The position numbers and the translations under genes were made by a program. A stretch of 64,000 bases of DNA from an uncultured Granulosicoccaceae bacterium (GTDB taxonomy: Bacteria; Pseudomonadota; Gammaproteobacteria; Granulosicoccales; Granulosicoccaceae): the NCBI GenBank assembly GCA_938041955.1, contig CALISD010000062.1, positions 97 through 64,096 on the forward strand, read 5' to 3'. Within the stretch, counting starts at the first letter, position 1, and each line of letters opens with the position of its first letter. The notes below the pieces were generated by a model. That model worked only from the letters and a program-made list of their open reading frames with translations, was not told the origin of the DNA and searched no databases. Below are positions 2,634-58,771 of this stretch, piece by piece.

Positions 2634-2675
2634 GAATCGACCCCTGCAACCTGCAGGCACAGCATGAGACCGGAG

Positions 2676-2951
2676 TCACTCCGCCTTCACAACACCACCA
2701 TGCATAGAGTGCCGGCGGGTAATTTCATCGTGCATCGCAGAAACCTCCCGACTGGCGGTGGTTTCGCACAGCGCCGGCACCACCGCGTGCACCAGTGCAG
2801 CCGACGCCGCCTTAGACAGTCGAAAAGACATAGTCATGGCAAACCGCATATGCTGAAAGTAAGTCTCATCAACTTCAGCATGGTGTTCACGGCAGGATTG
2901 AATAAATTGCCGCCCGGGCAGGATTAATTTGACTGGTTTTGAGGTGGCCAT
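2676..2951 (-). CDS. Small conserved protein, DUF6356-like
   Basis: 91-aa ORF. The segment HHAEVDETYFQHMRFAMTMSFRLSKAASAALVHAVVPAL resembles the DUF6356 family as I remember it. Not verified by search. Confidence 0.4.
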   Translation of the reverse strand: MATSKPVKLILPGRQFIQSCREHHAEVDETYFQHMRFAMTMSFRLSKAASAALVHAVVPALCETTASREVSAMHDEITRRHSMHGGVVKAE

Positions 2952-3060
2952 GCAGCGTCTTCCGAATCAGTGGGAAGGGATAGGTTGCCACTCAACAAGC
3001 GACAATATATCCCAATATTTTCACTAATTTGTCCATTTTCGGGATATCATCCCAATAATT

Positions 3061-29070: not shown

Positions 29071-30567
29071 CTACTGAATAACCGAATCTATTACATGAAT
29101 TATTCCGTTTTCAGCCTTGATGTCAGTGATGATTACCTTAGCGTTGTTCACAAACAGAGCACCATCACGAATCGACAGCGCCACGTCCGTTCCACTGGCG
29201 GTCTCAACCGAGCCACCCGTTGCGGCGAAAGCGGATACAGAGTCGACCGTTGCCCCGCTGATCACGTGAGTCAGAAGAATATTTGACAAGGTTGGCAGAT
29301 CACCCAAAAGGGCATCAATCGTGTCAGCGCCAAGCAAATTGAACGCATCATCTGTTGGTGCAAATACAGTAAATACCCCGCCGTGATCAGCTAAAACAGC
29401 GTCGAGCTGAGTAGCCTGTAAAGCCGCGACCAGGGTGTTAAAACGACCGTCAGCTACCGCTATATCCACCACTGAACCTGTTCCCATTATCGGCGCCGGC
29501 GGCGTGAGTACGGTATCAATTACGTGTATGACGCCATTTGATGCCAACACATCAGTCGCTGTCACCTGCGACAAATTGACAAACAGATTACCGCCATTCA
29601 AAGACAATGCGAACTCCGCTCCATTAGCCGCAGTAATCTTGGTACCCGCCAGAGATACGGCTGTCTTCGCTTCCACTGCTGTACCGCCGATAACGTGATA
29701 AAGAAGTATGTCCTTCAAGGTATCAGTGTCTGAGAGCAATGCGTTGATCGTATCCTGGCCAAGAGCAGCAAACGCGGCGTCTGTTGGAGCAAATACGGTG
29801 TAAGTCTGAGTGTCATCCGCCAGCACAGTATCCAGACCAGTAGCGGCTAACGCTGCTGCCAGTGTGTTGAAGCTTCCTGCAGCGACCGCCGTATCAACGA
29901 GGTTTAACAGATTGTGATCGTCGCCAGCGCCCGTGTTTTCACCGCCGTCTGAGGTACCGTCCGTAGTACCACCGGTGTCACCACCGTTGTTACCTACGTT
30001 AGCGCTTGTATCCGCTTGACCGGGAATTAAAACAGCATCAATCACATGGATTATGCCGTTGGTTGCAGTAATGTCTGCAGTGGTTACCGCTGACGCATTG
30101 ATAAACAGATCCGCGCCTTGCAATGATATCGCCAGAGAAGTGCCATTCGCCGCATCTACTGTTCCACCAGCAAGACTTATCGCAGTTTGAGAATCAACAC
30201 TGTTACCACCGATCACGTGGTAAAGCAGGATGTCACGAAGTTGATCAGGATTAGCAAGCAATTCGCTAATGGTGTCGCTGCCTAACGCTGCAAAAGCGTC
30301 ATCAGTTGGAGCAAATACTGTGTAGGTTTGAGTATCATCGGCAAGTACTGCATCAAGCCCGGTGGCTTGCAACGCAGCGACCAGTGTATTGAAACTACCC
30401 GCACCAACCGCCGTCTCTACAATGTTCTTTGTCGCTGGAACTACCACTGCAGTTTCAGAATCGGAAGATAGGGTCGCTGCACCGTCACAGGCGGCCAGAG
30501 TGAGAAGTGCAACACCTGCAAATGCAGCCTTTGCTCCTGTGGTGATTTTCTTAGAAAAACATTTCAT
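29071..30567 (-). CDS. Lipoprotein with three fasciclin (FAS1) domains
   Basis: ATG 30567 gives MKCFSKKITTGAKAAFAGVALLTLAAC with lipobox LAAC. There are three FAS1 units, each with FTVFAPTDDAF and NGIIHVID motifs. A Gly/Thr/Asp-rich linker separates units 1 and 2. Confidence 0.9.
   Translation of the reverse strand: MKCFSKKITTGAKAAFAGVALLTLAACDGAATLSSDSETAVVVPATKNIVETAVGAGSFNTLVAALQATGLDAVLADDTQTYTVFAPTDDAFAALGSDTISELLANPDQLRDILLYHVIGGNSVDSQTAISLAGGTVDAANGTSLAISLQGADLFINASAVTTADITATNGIIHVIDAVLIPGQADTSANVGNNGGDTGGTTDGTSDGGENTGAGDDHNLLNLVDTAVAAGSFNTLAAALAATGLDTVLADDTQTYTVFAPTDAAFAALGQDTINALLSDTDTLKDILLYHVIGGTAVEAKTAVSLAGTKITAANGAEFALSLNGGNLFVNLSQVTATDVLASNGVIHVIDTVLTPPAPIMGTGSVVDIAVADGRFNTLVAALQATQLDAVLADHGGVFTVFAPTDDAFNLLGADTIDALLGDLPTLSNILLTHVISGATVDSVSAFAATGGSVETASGTDVALSIRDGALFVNNAKVIITDIKAENGIIHVIDSVIQ
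29074..30426 (-). repeat. Three tandem FAS1-encoding repeat units (about 400 bp each)
   Basis: Units at 30022-30426, 29500-29907 and 29074-29475. Units 1 and 2 are also visibly similar at the DNA level, for example around the YTVFAPTD and ILLYHVIGG codons. Confidence 0.8.
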
Positions 30568-31586
30568 TTTCGGGTCCGTTGAGTTATTCATGGGAGGCAT
30601 CACATTGATGTTGCGGTGCATATTGCCTGCATTGCCGTGAATCAAGGGTGTCGCGGCTGTGAACGAGCCGTGAATTGCACCCGAAGCACCCGAAAAATCA
30701 TTCTCAAGTGAACGTAAAGCTCAGCGGACTGCCGATGTCTCTCCAGTAATGTGACAGCGATTTCTTACTTCCCGCAACAATACTCGACCATGTAAGCAGT
30801 TCTAACCTGCTGCCATGCAGTTACCGCAAAATCACGGCGTGGCACTGCTACTTCCCGGCGGAATGAATTAGGAGTAGTGGCAGCTTGCGTACTGACTCCA
30901 ATGCCAACATACAGATATTAGGACTTATCGCCAAACCCAGTTACCGGAAAAAAAACCTAATGCATACCACAACCGATATGCACGCTTCGCCTGGTGCTGC
31001 AGACAATAGCTGCTATTGCAATTGCGAGTAGTGAATAACAGACACTGGAGTTCATTTGAATTGATGAGCGCTTATAACAACACGCATTCTGCTAATAACG
31101 CTCAGCTTCAACTATCACTGATATCGAACTCAGACGTCGTTAAATATGATGCGATAAGATACTGCACCACAGACCAATAAATGCTGTTAGCTGTAGACCG
31201 GCATGAACACCGCCCGTTTTCGCACTATCTGAATCAAGCCGCAAGATTATTTCCGACCAACGTGACCGGATGTGAACGTCAATAGATCACAACGGCTTTA
31301 TGTCACCACTGTGGTATTCAAGTCTGGGACGGTGGGAGCGAACATCACTTAATAACAGTCAGCACGTAAGGACCTTAAGGCACTGATGTAATAACGAGCC
31401 ATATCAGCTTTGTGCATGTGGAAACCTACCGACGGTCAACTCATCATTCAATAAGCCGGTACCTGCCGGTGTGGAACCAGCAAATTAGAAGACCATCTAC
31501 GAGCGAAGAGACACGCACTGAAACACTGCAGAGACAGCAAACCCGGAGACCGACGCACGCTGTAACTCAAGCATGCACTTATGCCG

Positions 31587-32087
31587 CTATTCCAATTGCA
31601 ACGCCAACGGACTCAATTGCAATAAACTATGCTGCTCCAGATAGGTGATCTTGAGCTCGCCTTGAATCAAAGCAACCATCGCTTTTATTCTCGACTTCGC
31701 AACCACAACCGTCTCCTGCGATTCAGCACTCTCCCGCACTTCCATCACAATACGGGCCCGACCACTGTCAAGCACATTGACCTTAAGATACGTGCGCTCA
31801 TACGTTGATTTTTGTACCGCGCCAACACTTTCTTTTGCAGCGGTAATATACTCTGTGCGATCAAACCGCTGGGTAGATTTATTTCCCAGGTACTTGAAAT
31901 GCACTACGGCCTCAAAATCCTTACTTAGAAATTGAGTAAGGTCATCAAAGAGGAATTGCTGATTAGTGTGCTCGACACGCTCAATGAACCGTTCGACACT
32001 TTGCACCTCAAGAGCGACAGCTTGAGTAGCTACGAAGAAAAACAATCCGAAACCCAGTAACAGCCTTGGGAATATCTTCATTATCAC
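31587..32087 (-). CDS. Hypothetical secreted protein
   Basis: 166 aa with a signal peptide (MKIFPRLLLGFGLFFFVATQAVA). No family recognised; size and composition suggest a small alpha+beta (NTF2-like) fold. Lies 93 nt downstream of the riboswitch-controlled oxidoreductase. Confidence 0.55.
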   Translation of the reverse strand: MIMKIFPRLLLGFGLFFFVATQAVALEVQSVERFIERVEHTNQQFLFDDLTQFLSKDFEAVVHFKYLGNKSTQRFDRTEYITAAKESVGAVQKSTYERTYLKVNVLDSGRARIVMEVRESAESQETVVVAKSRIKAMVALIQGELKITYLEQHSLLQLSPLALQLE

Positions 32088-32180: not shown

Positions 32181-33455
32181 CTAACTCGCCTTCTTAAAGC
32201 CAGACAGTACCTGTGTTTCAGCCGGGAGCGACTGACCAATCACTTCCGCAATCATTTCTGCGGTAATTGGTGACAAAGTCCAACCCAGGTGCCCATGACC
32301 GGTGTTATAGAAAACACCGGATTGCTTGCCACTGCCAATGCGGGGCATCATATTCGGCATCATTGGACGCAGTCCGGCCCATGAAATCACATGCTCGGTA
32401 TCCACTGCCGGAAAGTACCTACGGCACCACTCGATCAATGGCTGGATACGGTCATCTCGAATATCGCGATTCACACCATTAAACTCTGCAGTACCTGCTA
32501 TACGGAAGCGATCGTCACCCAACCGACTGGTGACAATTTTCGCTTCATCATCAAGAATGCTGACCCACGGAGCCGCTTCCTGGCTGACGCTATCATCCAA
32601 AGGAACTGTTATTGAGTAACCTTTGACCGGATAGACATTGACCCGGTCACCCAACTGCGCTGCAATGCCACGGCTACCAATTCCGGCGCACACTACCACA
32701 CCATCAAATTCATGCTCATTCGTGTTTGCTGCAGCGCCGGGCTCAACATTTATTGATTGCACTCTGACCGAGCGGCCAGTGTGACTCACCTCTTCCACTT
32801 GAGTATCACAGCAAAATGTCGCCCCCATGCGAACACAAGCATCGGCCAAACCACGGGTATACTTGTGAATATCACCGGTTGAATCACTGGGAGTAAAATA
32901 CCCTCCGTAAAAATCACCGGTAAGCGACGGCTCAATCTGCTTCATCTCACTAGCATCTACCGCATCACGCTGAAGGCCGCCTTTAAGCAGTAAGTCGTTC
33001 ACACGAGTGGCATGTTCATACTCTTTCTTTGTGGAATAGATATGCAATATGCCGCGCTGCTCATAATCAAAGTTGATCTGCTCACGCGAGGCCCATTCTT
33101 GCAGATGTTCTCGCGCTGCGACTGCTAACCGCGCCGTTTCAATTGTGTTGTTTTTGTAGTTGGGAATATTGCCTATAAACTCAGCCATCCAAGACACCTT
33201 GTGCCAATCAGGGCGAGGGTTAACAAGTAGAGGCGCATCTTTGCGCAGCATCCACTTCAGCCCTTTTATTACCGTGGAGGTTTGCGTCCAAACCTCGGCA
33301 TTGGAGGCAGAAAGCTGCCCGCCATTGGCAAAAGACGTGGCCATCGCCGGGTAACGATGACGATCAAATACCGTGACATCAAAGCCGCGATTGAGTAGTG
33401 CATAGCAGGTGGTGACGCCAGTGATACCAGCGCCTATAACAGCGATTTTTTTCAT
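32181..33455 (-). CDS. FAD-dependent oxidoreductase, D-amino acid dehydrogenase (DadA)-like
   Basis: ATG 33455 with GAGGAA SD gives MKKIAVIGAGITGVTTCYAL (GxGxxG). DAO-family layout, 424 aa. The track start at 33497 runs into the riboswitch expression platform. Confidence 0.85.
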   Translation of the reverse strand: MKKIAVIGAGITGVTTCYALLNRGFDVTVFDRHRYPAMATSFANGGQLSASNAEVWTQTSTVIKGLKWMLRKDAPLLVNPRPDWHKVSWMAEFIGNIPNYKNNTIETARLAVAAREHLQEWASREQINFDYEQRGILHIYSTKKEYEHATRVNDLLLKGGLQRDAVDASEMKQIEPSLTGDFYGGYFTPSDSTGDIHKYTRGLADACVRMGATFCCDTQVEEVSHTGRSVRVQSINVEPGAAANTNEHEFDGVVVCAGIGSRGIAAQLGDRVNVYPVKGYSITVPLDDSVSQEAAPWVSILDDEAKIVTSRLGDDRFRIAGTAEFNGVNRDIRDDRIQPLIEWCRRYFPAVDTEHVISWAGLRPMMPNMMPRIGSGKQSGVFYNTGHGHLGWTLSPITAEMIAEVIGQSLPAETQVLSGFKKAS

Positions 33456-33508
33456 CGATGTGTTCCTCGACAGTTTTATCCGGATTGCAGGTTGCAATCA
33501 CTTCCAAT

Positions 33509-33684
33509 CCCATCTGTCTCGGAACCTGAGAGTTTTTGCGAGCGTTCGCATTACCCCTTCGGTGAGTGCACAACCGTGCACTGCTCTCCAGATGTCTCTG
33601 TTTAATGTGGTCCGTTTGCCTGAGAGTTTCCTGGGTGTTGCTCCTTCGGCGCTGCCGTGCTTCACAGCCGGCAATCTCTCCCAC
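33509..33684 (-). promoter_or_regulatory. Tandem glycine riboswitch (two aptamers)
   Basis: Minus-strand aptamer 1 (33684->33607): GUGGGAGAGAUUGCCGGCUGUGAAGCACGGCAGCGCCGAAGGAGCAACACCCAGGAAACUCUCAGGCAAACGGACCAC. Minus-strand aptamer 2 (33593->33509): AUCUGGAGAGCAGUGCACGGUUGUGCACUCACCGAAGGGGUAAUGCGAACGCUCGCAAAAACUCUCAGGUUCCGAGACAGAUGGG. Both carry the GGAGAG / CCGAAGGrGyAA / CUCUCAGG cores and closing P1 helices of the glycine riboswitch. Confidence 0.9.
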
Positions 33685-34245
33685 ATTATCTTTTGCACTG
33701 CCTGAGCAGTGCCGTCGAGACGAGCGACACAATGAACTAACTATGCCGCCATGGCAAGGAATTGCTTAATTTTTTACCTTCGGGAAGAAAATAGCGTCGT
33801 ATCAAACAAACCACTTTCAACATCCGCCACATTATCGGCCCGAAGCCTACTTTCTTTAGTCCCATATCAGCGCCCGGCAGCCGCGGCATCATCGTAACTG
33901 TATTTTCATACAGTATTCGATACCATAGCGACTGTCAGCGCAGCCGCTTTTTGAGTGGCCAGAATGAATCAACAACAATCCGAATTTATCACCCGTGCAA
34001 TGCAACAGCTCAGTCAGGTAATTGATGAATGCTGTAAGAATTCCTCGATTGCCAGCGCCACTCTGGGTCGCAAGCGAGTGGGCAAACATACTGTGGTTGT
34101 CAGATTAATTGCAGAGGTAGACAAAGGGTTCTCCGCCCCACTAGGTTCACACGCCAGCAGGCTCGGAGCTGAACCGGATTACTCAAAGCAAACAGAACAT
34201 CACAATGTCCATCGTGGGAGCCGTTGGCACAAGCCCATTTTCTAG

Positions 34246-35205
34246 TTAGGCTGAACCTGTAGGCACTACCTCATAGCCCGGTTCTTCAGGCTCATCATCT
34301 TTCATCTCAGCAGGGAAACCGGGCGCGAGAATACTAAGGCCAGTCGCATCTTCCAATCGACGAATTATATTTGGTGACCATTCGCGTGAACCATATCTGG
34401 CTTCACCGTCTTTAAAGATTTTGATTAGCAGCGGGCTGATTTCAAGCGGTACGTTGGCCCGATCTGCGACGGCCTGGAAAAGGCCGATGTCTTTACTCAC
34501 CAAATCCATGGTAAACGAAATATCACGTGATCCATTGAGGATCACCTGGCTTTCAGTTTCATGAACAAAAGAAGTTCCAGATGAAATCTTTATCGCTTCA
34601 TAGGTGGTGTTGAGATCCATACCGGCGGCTTTTGCGGTCACCAACGCCTCACAACAAGACAAAAGATTTGCAGTGGCCAGATAGTTTGTGATCACTTTCA
34701 ATACAGAAGCGGATCCTAATGGTCCGGTATGCAGCAGGCGGCGACCAAGTGACTTAAGAACAGGAGTAATGCGATCAAAGGTTTCCCGCTCACAGCCTGC
34801 GAAAATTGAAATATTACCCGTATCTGCGCGATGGCAACCACCCGACACAGGGCAGTCAACTGCAGAAGCTCCGACCTTTTCAACCAAGGCACCGAGACGT
34901 TTAACTTCTGCCTCATCAGTGGTCGACATCTCCATCCATATCTTGCCATCTGACAGACCTTGCAACAGACCGTCGCTATCTTCCATTACCGCAGCAGAGG
35001 CTGCAGGAGAAGGCAAACAGGTAATCACGGCCTCACAAGCGACAGCCATCGCTTTAGGACTGTCAGCCCATGATGCCCCCTGATCTAAAAACGGCTGTGC
35101 CAGCGTTCGATCAAGATCACGAACCATCACATCGTGACCATTGCGCAGCAGACTACCCGCCAACTTGCCACCAACATTACCAAGACCTATAAAGCCAATT
35201 TTCAT
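34246..35205 (-). CDS. NAD(P)-dependent oxidoreductase, 3-hydroxyisobutyrate dehydrogenase family
   Basis: 319 aa. MKIGFIGLGNVGGKLAGSL Rossmann motif and a 6-PGDH-like C-terminal domain. Confidence 0.85.
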   Translation of the reverse strand: MKIGFIGLGNVGGKLAGSLLRNGHDVMVRDLDRTLAQPFLDQGASWADSPKAMAVACEAVITCLPSPAASAAVMEDSDGLLQGLSDGKIWMEMSTTDEAEVKRLGALVEKVGASAVDCPVSGGCHRADTGNISIFAGCERETFDRITPVLKSLGRRLLHTGPLGSASVLKVITNYLATANLLSCCEALVTAKAAGMDLNTTYEAIKISSGTSFVHETESQVILNGSRDISFTMDLVSKDIGLFQAVADRANVPLEISPLLIKIFKDGEARYGSREWSPNIIRRLEDATGLSILAPGFPAEMKDDEPEEPGYEVVPTGSA

Positions 35206-35264: not shown

Positions 35265-36392
35265 CTAAACCCGACTCTCACAAGCGGTACGAATGATCCC
35301 GGCCAACGTCCGTAACCCGTGTGCTGCCTCTTCCGGTGAAGCATGACTGAAGTTCAAACGCAGACTTGGAAGTGCCTTTACCCCCCTGGGATAGAACGAC
35401 TCGCCGGGCATGAAAGCGACTCCCGCTTCAATCGCCTGCTTTAACAACTCACGTGTATCAATGGCGAATTCCGGCCGCAACGTCAGCCAATAGAACAATC
35501 CACCGACGGGCTGCTGCCAATCTGCAATGCCACTGAATGCAGAAGTAAGGCTAAGGTCGAAGCTATCCCGCCGACGGCGATAGAACGTGGTTAAGGTTTG
35601 GTTTCTGTCATCGTTGAGCTGCAACAACTGTAAAATCAGTCGCTGACTGACTCTGCAACTGTGCAAATCAGCCGCCTGCTTCAAACGCACAAGATGTGGA
35701 AATAATTTTTTAGAACAAGTCAGATACCCTAAACGCAGACCCGGCGCATAGGCCTTGGAAAACGATGACTGATAGATCCACTCTGTATCGCGAACATAAC
35801 TGCAAACCGGTGTGCGATCACATTCCCCGTATACAAGATCACGGTATGGATCGTCTTCAAACAAGACACTGCCAGAACGGTCACACGCCAAAGCCAAAGC
35901 ACGCCGTTGCTCCTCGCTGTAGCAATGGCCAGTCGGGTTTTGAAAAGTAGGAATGGTGTAAGTCAGGCGTGAATTACCAATCTTCGGCTGATCGGCGGTA
36001 TAAGGAATATACTCAGCACCGAATAGATCAAAAACCTGCAAAGCTGCCAGATACGTTGGCGCTTCAACGGCAACATTTGTTCCTCGATCTACAAATAGCT
36101 TTGCTACCAGATCAATACCTTGTTGCGAACCGGACAATATCAACACTCGTTCAGGTGTCGTCTGAAGCCCTCGCTCAATCAAACTCGCCGCCACCTGCTC
36201 ACGCAACTCGCTTTCACCCTCAGACGGTCCGTACTGCAGATGCTCGCTATCAACGCAGCTTAAATCCAGCGCTGGAAAGCACTCAGTCGCCGGCAACCCA
36301 CCTGCAAAGGAAATCATTCCGGGCCTGTCTATTACCTTGAGAATTTCCCTGACGGGCGATTCAACCAGGTTTTCAATCCTTTTCGCAAACAT
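35265..36392 (-). CDS. PLP-dependent aminotransferase (class I/II fold)
   Basis: 375 aa. SPVREIL...ISFAGGLP N-terminal motif and PLP-lysine motif SSFSKAYAPGLRLGY. Confidence 0.85.
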   Translation of the reverse strand: MFAKRIENLVESPVREILKVIDRPGMISFAGGLPATECFPALDLSCVDSEHLQYGPSEGESELREQVAASLIERGLQTTPERVLILSGSQQGIDLVAKLFVDRGTNVAVEAPTYLAALQVFDLFGAEYIPYTADQPKIGNSRLTYTIPTFQNPTGHCYSEEQRRALALACDRSGSVLFEDDPYRDLVYGECDRTPVCSYVRDTEWIYQSSFSKAYAPGLRLGYLTCSKKLFPHLVRLKQAADLHSCRVSQRLILQLLQLNDDRNQTLTTFYRRRRDSFDLSLTSAFSGIADWQQPVGGLFYWLTLRPEFAIDTRELLKQAIEAGVAFMPGESFYPRGVKALPSLRLNFSHASPEEAAHGLRTLAGIIRTACESRV

Positions 36393-58501: not shown

Positions 58502-58578
58502 TGGTGCGCCCGGAAGGATTCGAACCTCCGACCACCTGGTTCGTAGCCAGGTACTCTATCCAGCTGAGCTACGGGCGC
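58502..58578 (-). tRNA. tRNA-Arg (anticodon ACG)
   Basis: The reverse complement GCGCCCGTAGCTCAGCTGGATAGAGTACCTGGCTACGAACCAGGTGGTCGGAGGTTCGAATCCTTCCGGGCGCACCA folds as a cloverleaf: 7-bp acceptor stem, anticodon loop CTACGAA, encoded CCA. Confidence 0.95.
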
Positions 58579-58678: not shown

Positions 58679-58771
58679 TGGCGGAGAGAGAGGGATTCGA
58701 ACCCTCGATGGAGCTATAAACCCCATACTCCCTTAGCAGGGGAGCGCCTTCTACCACTCGGCCACGTCTCC
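58679..58771 (-). tRNA. tRNA-Ser (anticodon GCU)
   Basis: The reverse complement is GGAGACGTGGCCGAGTGGTAGAAGGCGCTCCCCTGCTAAGGGAGTATGGGGTTTATAGCTCCATCGAGGGTTCGAATCCCTCTCTCTCCGCCA. It has a long variable arm, anticodon loop CTGCTAA and encoded CCA. One C6-C67 mismatch in the acceptor stem. Confidence 0.9.

Follow-up and report, generated by a model that had tools for sequence, protein, structure and literature searches.

A tandem glycine riboswitch upstream of a DadA-type flavoenzyme gene in an uncultured Granulosicoccaceae bacterium: a probable translational ON switch

We have analyzed a stretch of 64,000 nucleotides (nt) from an uncultured Granulosicoccaceae bacterium (contig CALISD010000062.1), hereafter the window, to which all coordinates refer. 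Its minus strand carries two consecutive glycine aptamers just upstream of a gene annotated as a D-amino acid dehydrogenase, which lies on the same strand. The whole set of observations is probably best explained by a tandem riboswitch that acts as a translational ON switch for a DadA6-type glycine dehydrogenase/oxidase dependent on flavin adenine dinucleotide (FAD). The riboswitch and the gene form a conserved pair in proteobacteria, and the second aptamer contains a stretch, complementary to the Shine-Dalgarno (SD) strand of the gene, that co-varies with it.

Two glycine aptamers conserved upstream of one gene

Aptamer 1 matched the Rfam glycine model RF00504 with 68.2 bits (E = 4.7e-12; 33693-33598) in the scan of the whole 64-kb window, and aptamer 2 matched it with 59.2 bits (E = 2.3e-12; 33601-33504) when the 137 nt of 33470-33606 were scanned alone, the gathering score of the model being 32 bits. 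Aptamer 2 is absent from the Rfam tables of the whole window and of a 401-nt segment because its match shares 4 nt with that of aptamer 1, and of overlapping matches the scan keeps the better one. In general, the Rfam scan merges tandem aptamers with slightly overlapping model flanks into one match, which affected most of the 20 closest loci, and thus, tandem riboswitches can be mistaken for singlets. A single-aptamer covariance model that we made from 22 aptamers (R1) scored both aptamers separately, with 83.5 bits for aptamer 1 and 72.4 bits for aptamer 2.

An earlier note, made from the letters of this DNA, had proposed a tandem glycine riboswitch at this place, and its main statements stand. 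The cores that it listed are present in the minus-strand sequence, i.e., GGAGAG, CCGAAGGAGCAA, and CUCUCAGG in aptamer 1 and GGAGAG, CCGAAGGGGUAA, and CUCUCAGG in aptamer 2. Its P1 helices, GUGG/CCAC and AUCUG/CAGAU, are also found: P1 of aptamer 1 reaches 8 base pairs (bp), joining UAAUGUGG (33688-33681) with CCACAUUA (33610-33603), and P1 of aptamer 2 joins AUCUG (33593-33589) with CAGAU (33516-33512). The linker measures 13 nt, as claimed, between CCAC and AUCUG, and 9 nt when the 8-bp P1 is counted. Aptamer 2 ends 53-56 nt before the ATG at 33455, close to the distance of about 50 nt given before, leaving one expression platform in the 5' untranslated region. The same note had suggested a search with RF00504, in which both aptamers lie above the gathering score, and an alignment of orthologous regions for covariation. 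In such an alignment of 105 aptamers, fitted to the model, 94.8% of the cells are paired, compensatory (both-side) changes are found at 13 of the 20 pairs, in support of helices P1, P2, P3, and P3a, and the covariation score is 0.689, whereas shuffles give 0.178 and slid partners do not exceed 0.134. Judged by sequence and covariation, the minus-strand element is a genuine tandem glycine riboswitch, and both aptamers are predicted to bind glycine.

The comparison set comprised 80 orthologous loci from alpha-, beta-, and gammaproteobacteria (600 kb, both strands searched), numbered from L001. Glycine aptamers lie 45-107 nt upstream of the gene in 76 of these loci, being tandem in 64 and single in 12, and the remaining 4 have none. 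R1 gave 140 matches in the 600 kb, all of them on the gene strand and ending 45-107 nt before the gene, and none elsewhere. In 19 of the 20 closest loci, the orthologue has a gathering-level match to RF00504 just upstream, and such matches were also found in eight distant loci from Roseobacter, Ahrensia, Bradyrhizobium, Cupriavidus, Limnohabitans, Pseudomonas, and a Burkholderiaceae bacterium. The best related loci belong to metagenome-assembled Granulosicoccaceae, the protein of L007 being 94% identical to that of the window. The conserved unit is the riboswitch together with the single gene 33455-32181. In the locus L065 (Limnohabitans; 1300-1640), the dadA-like gene directly follows an upstream coding region (...MVHNPAYDFND...) with no aptamer within 330 nt, and this gene may be part of a larger operon.

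The regulated gene and glycine oxidation

The gene product reaches 720.9 bits against the NF009074 family (PRK12409) over residues 1-412 (cut-off 494) and matches Pfam DAO (1.3e-75), in agreement with the previous assignment to a DadA-type flavoenzyme and not to a gcv gene. It scores under the cut-off of the Escherichia coli-type DadA (NF001933, PRK00711; 335.4 vs 383 bits) and also under that of the ThiO glycine oxidase (TIGR02352; 142.6 vs 250.8 bits). The nearest solved structures by sequence are glycine oxidases (7cyx, E = 1.6e-16; 4ysh, 9e-14).

A member of this family appears to have been characterized genetically. In Cupriavidus necator, the dadA6 gene (H16_B0508; 1.269 kb) is up 185-fold on glycine and is required for growth on this amino acid, and it lets an E. 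coli glyoxylate auxotroph grow with glycine (Claassens et al., bioRxiv 10.1101/2020.03.11.987487). In vivo, the enzyme forms glyoxylate from glycine by oxidation, the so-called 'glyoxylate route' (bioRxiv 10.1101/2020.03.11.987487; PMC11879842); riboswitch control is not mentioned in these DadA6 papers, one of which uses the word riboswitch for a cloning tool only. We have examined two further loci from C. necator strains (L081 and L082), outside the 80 loci. The C. necator orthologues P0097 and P0101 have 422 amino acids (aa), i.e., 1269 nt including the stop codon. P0101 scores 747.6 bits against NF009074 and is 63% identical to the window protein, and the proteins of L037, L047, and L048 score 704-743 bits. 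The published primer dadA6-rev (PMC11879842) has a match with two mismatches about 1.15 kb upstream of the P0097 and P0101 genes, and by our own estimate a match of this quality is expected by chance about 6e-5 times in 18.5 kb. The primer dadA6-for was not found in L081 and L082, whose downstream genes differ, and neither primer gives a meaningful match in the 80 genome loci. The C. necator genes are preceded by tandem glycine aptamers; in L081, these have Rfam scores of 57.3 and 40.9 bits, and R1 matched twice in each of the two loci.

Taking these data together, the product of the window gene is most likely a DadA6-type glycine dehydrogenase/oxidase forming glyoxylate, glycine being its presumed substrate. 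The C. necator experiments, together with a glycine sensor that accompanies NF009074 genes almost throughout, argue for reading these 'D-amino acid dehydrogenases' as glycine-oxidising enzymes.

The expression platform and the level of control

In the 3' part of aptamer 2, GUUCC (33525-33521) and GACAG (33518-33514) can pair with GGAAC (33466-33462) and CUGUC (33473-33469) of the SD strand around a 2x2 GA/GA loop, with -16.7 kcal/mol. The complementarity between aptamer 2 and the SD strand co-varies. In every clade, the last aptamer ends in CAGG-N6-8-ACAGA-(G/U)GG, followed by a G+C-rich hairpin and then by an SD-containing complement of the junction and P1. Perfect 8-bp variants of the pairing between anti-SD and SD strands are found in L022 (CCGAGACA/UGUCUCGG), L026 (CCAAACAG/CUGUUUGG), and L072 (UCCAGAAC/GUUCUGGA), and the Rhodobacterales have a version of their own (CCUGCGAC/GUCGCGGG). 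Over 70 unique loci, the mean energy of the cognate duplexes is -15.0 kcal/mol, compared with -12.3 for non-cognate and -9.2 for shuffled partners, and none of 5000 permutations reached the cognate mean. The spacer hairpin between the two strands also shows compensatory variants, e.g., GAUUGCC/GGCAGUC in L006, GGAUC/GAUCC in L008, and GAAUUGCC/GGCAAUUC in L014.

Folding gave a consistent picture. In the free fold of 33596-33436 (-52.1 kcal/mol), the anti-SD helix is formed and the unpaired probability of GGAA is 0.00-0.02. Enforcing P1 of aptamer 2 in the same segment costs about 6.5 kcal/mol and leaves the SD 0.66-0.95 unpaired. When aptamer 2 was withdrawn, the region from -14 to -5 became more accessible in 62 of the 65 unique tandem loci (0.30 -> 0.54), and with a shuffled aptamer 2 its accessibility was 0.43.

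The minus strand has no terminator-like site and no U tract between the end of aptamer 2 (33509) and the ATG at 33455. The sequence after the spacer hairpin is CGGAUAAAACUGUC, whereas a terminator of the Bacillus subtilis gcvT type has a G+C-rich hairpin and a U tract. The earlier note had also seen the SD GAGGAA (33468-33463) with no U tract before it, and had read the platform as looking translational or Rho-dependent and lacking a classic terminator; the missing terminator and the co-varying SD pairing bear this out. Its GGAUUG/CAAUCC hairpin (33510-33482) needs some correction: this pairing is possible and forms when P1 of aptamer 2 is enforced, but covariation in relatives supports the inner hairpin, formed by GAUUGCA (33499-33493) and UGCAAUC (33489-33483).

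Since the anti-SD bases overlap the 3' strand of P1 of aptamer 2, the SD cannot be sequestered while aptamer 2 is folded with its ligand bound; this is the logic of a translational ON switch. We infer from this the ON direction and a control at the level of translation. According to the mechanism that we propose, a transcript starting at about 33722 would contain P0, aptamer 1, the 9-nt linker, aptamer 2, the spacer hairpin, and the ribosome-binding site of a monocistronic gene. When glycine is absent, GUUCC-GA-GACAG of aptamer 2 would pair with CUGUC-GA-GGAAC, the SD would be buried, and translation would be off. When glycine is bound, the same bases would be taken by P1 and the core junction of aptamer 2, so that the SD would be free and the enzyme could be made, converting surplus glycine into glyoxylate and ammonia.

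The start proposed for this transcript is predicted from the sequence. The motif TTGCCA-N17-CATTGT lies just upstream of P0 and recurs in relatives, suggesting that transcription starts near 33722, i.e., at P0. It scores under the threshold of a consensus promoter scan. The form TTGCCA-N17-CAT(T/A)(G/C)T is found just upstream of the P0 strand also in L001 and L005, and the near-identical L007 has it unchanged; in L002, L003, and L006, the same -10-like hexamer is kept, just ahead of GUCUCG. The 5' strand of P0 is complementary to the linker, and compensatory variants of this pairing are GUCGA/UCGAC in L009 and L010, GCUUU/AAAGC in L012 and L013, and CGUUCA/UGAACG in the Rhizobiales. With the linker redefined as the 8 nt before P1 of aptamer 2, cognate leader-linker duplexes have a mean of -5.97 kcal/mol vs -4.90 for non-cognate ones, a mean that 0 of 5000 permutations reach; an earlier version of the test with a loosely cut linker was weak (-6.33 vs -5.82 kcal/mol; 56 of 5000). 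Sherman et al. 2012 and Kladwang et al. 2012 are said to have described the P0 helix of tandem glycine riboswitches, and the leader-linker pairing of the window would fit this known helix, with an 18-nt hairpin separating P0 from P1. A hairpin of different sequence occupies the same leader position in Granulosicoccaceae relatives, where the 5' strand of P0 lies 24-48 nt from aptamer 1, vs 2-5 nt from P1 and no insert in the Rhizobiales. With this hairpin between P0 and P1 in the window, no canonical kink-turn could be assigned by eye, and in the Granulosicoccaceae the usual kink-turn may be replaced by a three-way junction.

Among the other explanations, the one that survives best, although we consider it unlikely, is that aptamer 2 no longer binds glycine and serves as a scaffold and platform only, the element sensing as a singlet through aptamer 1 alone. 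Aptamer 1 keeps the purine-rich junction CAaaaGG of the RF00504 consensus, whereas the junction before P1 of aptamer 2 has been replaced by UUCCGAG in the RF00504 alignment, and aptamer 2 has the lower score in every locus; the replaced junction may also affect the inter-aptamer tertiary (A-minor) contacts of the tandem architecture. Furthermore, in 11 Rhodobacterales loci (L030, L031, L037, L038, L041, L051, L055, L062, L066, L071, and L075; about 2820-3000), one full aptamer is followed by AUCUGAAG-hairpin-GCGACAGAGGGGAUUGG with P1 kept, i.e., aptamer 2 has decayed to a short hairpin, and its tail CC(U/C)GCGAC keeps the anti-SD role by pairing with GUCGCGGGAGG at the SD. Ruff et al. 2016 (PMC5066625) described singlets with a 'ghost aptamer', which these forms match. 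Nevertheless, aptamer 2 of the window keeps GGAGAG, CCGAAGGGG, CUCUCAGG, P1, P2, P3, and P3b, its score is well above the gathering score, and a second aptamer is retained in 64 of the 76 loci bearing the riboswitch. In L019 (Granulosicoccus; 2670-3001), all that remains is the 3' end of aptamer 2 (AAACUCUCAGGUUCCAAGACAGAUGGGAUGA) with a platform, GGAGAG and CCGAAGG being gone, and this locus looks like a decayed riboswitch remnant. An apparent series of decay thus leads from the tandem form to the 'ghost' aptamer of the 11 Rhodobacterales loci and to the remnant of L019.

Somewhat less likely still is a switch that works mainly on transcription, either by Rho acting in the leader or the early coding region when glycine is lacking, or by an attenuator that we have not recognised, with control of ribosome binding being secondary. 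As no intrinsic terminator was found, Rho is the sole transcriptional option. With the SD sequestered, translation would no longer be coupled and Rho could gain access to the transcript; Rho dependence was also raised in the earlier note. On the other hand, the conserved co-varying pairing involves the SD itself, which is a hallmark of translational control, and the platform, 57 nt long and for the most part base-paired, shows no evident rut-like tract (C-rich and unstructured).

Glycine riboswitches that switch transporters off exist, and an OFF switch by which glycine represses the gene was also considered. Both contexts are treated in Crum et al. 2019 (PMC6944388). We regard such a switch here as very improbable: the anti-SD overlaps the 3' strand of P1 of aptamer 2, and a folded aptamer excludes a sequestered SD; the C. 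necator family member rises on glycine; and induction by the substrate is what one expects of a catabolic enzyme.

Finally, the chance is minimal that one of the open reading frames (ORFs) 33379..33732 (-), 33409..33705 (+), and 33498..33698 (-), which do exist as open frames over the riboswitch, is a real gene and the RNA motif match incidental, since none of the three has a Pfam family, the stop-free frames of 21 relatives do not agree in strand, frame, or length, and L013 and L015 have none, the insertions and deletions in the P2 and P3b loops of relatives have lengths that are not multiples of three, and two RF00504 matches (E ~1e-12) stand with strong covariation. These ORFs, called artefacts before, are by this comparison indeed artefacts of a G+C-rich, stop-poor RNA gene. 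Thus, three false ORFs can be removed from the annotation of the window, and the 5' region of the regulated gene gains a clear function.

Several points weigh against a translational ON switch for a glycine-oxidising enzyme. The evidence from the window consists of sequence comparison and folding, from which glycine binding and regulation are predicted. The loci are related, and the permutation and Wilcoxon figures overstate their independence; likewise, the pair counts come from an alignment that favours the model. Because its junction departs from the RF00504 consensus, aptamer 2 may bind glycine poorly. Rho-dependent termination as a consequence of blocked translation is possible. The leader sequence GUCUCGAC (33714-33721) is also complementary to GUCGAGG at the SD (33464-33470), and a fold of the full leader plus platform pairs it with the SD region even when both P1 helices are enforced; we have treated this pairing as a modelling artefact, as P0 and tertiary structure are ignored in such folds, and it is left unexplained by the ON switch. 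Last, the equation of DadA6 with the C. necator orthologues, resting on gene length, one primer match, family membership, and species, appears strong but indirect.

Table 1. Predicted features of the riboswitch region and the regulated gene in the window.
Feature	Position	Strand	Remarks
Promoter-like element	33729..33757	-	-35 TTGCCA 33757-33752, 17-nt spacer, -10 CATTGT 33734-33729; from sequence
P0 5' strand GUCUC	33717..33721	-	Complementary to linker GAGAC 33598-33594; duplex -6.7 kcal/mol
Leader hairpin GCACUGC-UCAG-GCAGUGC	33695..33712	-	Between P0 and P1 of aptamer 1; in minimum-free-energy fold
Glycine aptamer 1	33603..33688	-	P1 UAAUGUGG/CCACAUUA; cores GGAGAG, CCGAAGGAGCAA, CUCUCAGGCAAACGGAC
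Inter-aptamer linker AACAGAGAC	33594..33602	-	Ends in GAGAC (33598-33594), the P0 3' strand
Glycine aptamer 2	33509..33596	-	P1 AUCUG/CAGAU; cores GGAGAG, CCGAAGGGGUAA, CUCUCAGG
Anti-SD GUUCC-GA-GACAG in aptamer 2	33514..33525	-	Overlaps P1 3' strand CAGAU 33516-33512
Spacer hairpin GAUUGCA-ACC-UGCAAUC	33483..33499	-	Minimum-free-energy folds; compensatory variants; brings SD strand beside aptamer 2
SD strand CUGUC-GA-GGAAC	33462..33473	-	Holds SD GAGGAA 33468-33463, 7 nt before ATG
Regulated gene, 424-aa FAD enzyme	32181..33455	-	NF009074 (PRK12409); annotated D-amino acid dehydrogenase

The neighbouring genes were considered as parts of the regulated unit and rejected, being shared only with the closest relatives. 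Upstream, there are a HIBADH-like gene (34246-35205) and an aminotransferase gene (35265-36392). Downstream, the ORF 31587-32087 (-) encodes a protein of 166 aa whose N terminus resembles a signal peptide (MIMKIFPRLLLGFGLFFFVATQAVA); it has no family in Pfam or NCBIfam, and among the fetched loci only L007 shares it. The gene 29071-30645 (-) encodes a 524-aa protein with three fasciclin domains (PF02469; 3.6e-96), and in L001-L003 a fasciclin gene is found directly downstream of the dadA-like gene. Matches to osmY and CRISPR-DR56 near the platform were dismissed, as they are far under their gathering scores. Elsewhere in the window, adjacent genes on the minus strand encode tRNA-Arg(ACG) (58502-58578) and tRNA-Ser(GCU) (58679-58771).

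Comparison with known systems

The element belongs to a known class of riboswitches, of which it is an ordinary member, and its gene family had already been catalogued in the corresponding regulon. In the RegPrecise data of Sun et al. 2013 (PMC3766115; Additional file 1), 'dadA' is found in the glycine-riboswitch column for Loktanella vestfoldensis, Oceanicola granulosus, Paracoccus denitrificans, Roseobacter sp. MED193 (as 'gcvHP; dadA'), Mesorhizobium loti, and Burkholderia xenovorans (twice), and thus, the gene link is not new. This 'dadA' was neither placed in a functional class nor discussed in the text of that paper. The gene family and the riboswitch are the same in both cases, as the locus of Roseobacter sp. 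MED193 (L037) has an NF009074 gene preceded by an RF00504 match, but the genomes in that list are alpha- and betaproteobacterial, whereas the Granulosicoccaceae are gammaproteobacterial. The earlier note had called the gene an unusual regulon member: it is a non-gcv gene, as stated, but not an unusual one, since 76 of the 80 loci carry the riboswitch and dadA was on that list. Our literature search returned no paper joining a glycine riboswitch with a D-amino acid dehydrogenase, dadA, a glycine oxidase, or an amino acid oxidase, and dadA is not mentioned in Barrick and Breaker 2007. In the searchable literature, we did not find the linkage of the riboswitch with NF009074 genes in 76 of 80 loci, its implication of a misnaming, a platform with the core junction as the anti-SD, or the series from tandem to ghost to remnant.

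A broader reading is that the whole NF009074 family consists of glycine dehydrogenases/oxidases that are almost always under riboswitch control in alpha-, beta-, and gammaproteobacteria, with aptamer 2 remodelled so that its core junction doubles as the anti-SD; we lean slightly towards it. If so, the same decay would have gone further in the Rhodobacterales ghosts and in the L019 remnant. There would also be a second riboswitch-controlled route of glycine disposal, from glycine to glyoxylate, beside the glycine cleavage system, and renaming NF009074 would alter the metabolic reconstructions of many marine and soil proteobacteria. The riboswitch would account for the strong induction of dadA6 seen in the work on the reductive glycine pathway without a protein regulator. 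Moreover, a tandem-ghost-remnant series before one gene family would be a natural data set on why two aptamers are kept.

The prototypes of tandem glycine riboswitches are reportedly those of B. subtilis gcvT and Vibrio cholerae VC1422, described by Mandal et al. 2004. Like the window element, they consist of a pair of homologous aptamers, with the same cores and helices, joined by a short linker, with a leader-linker pairing (P0, predicted in the window) and a single platform, and glycine is expected to activate a glycine-consuming function. The function differs, being the glycine cleavage system there and a glyoxylate-making flavoenzyme here, and the terminator hairpin of B. subtilis has no counterpart in the window. 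Unlike the prototypes, the window element has its anti-SD inside the non-consensus junction of aptamer 2 itself, and the Granulosicoccaceae have a hairpin between P0 and P1. C. necator DadA6 resembles the window protein in being an NF009074 member behind tandem glycine aptamers; in C. necator, its glyoxylate is taken by the glycerate pathway. Regarding the type-1 singlets of Ruff et al. 2016 (PMC5066625), the Rhodobacterales orthologues are alike in having one aptamer and a stem-loop replacing aptamer 2, whereas the window element differs from these singlets by its complete, high-scoring second aptamer.

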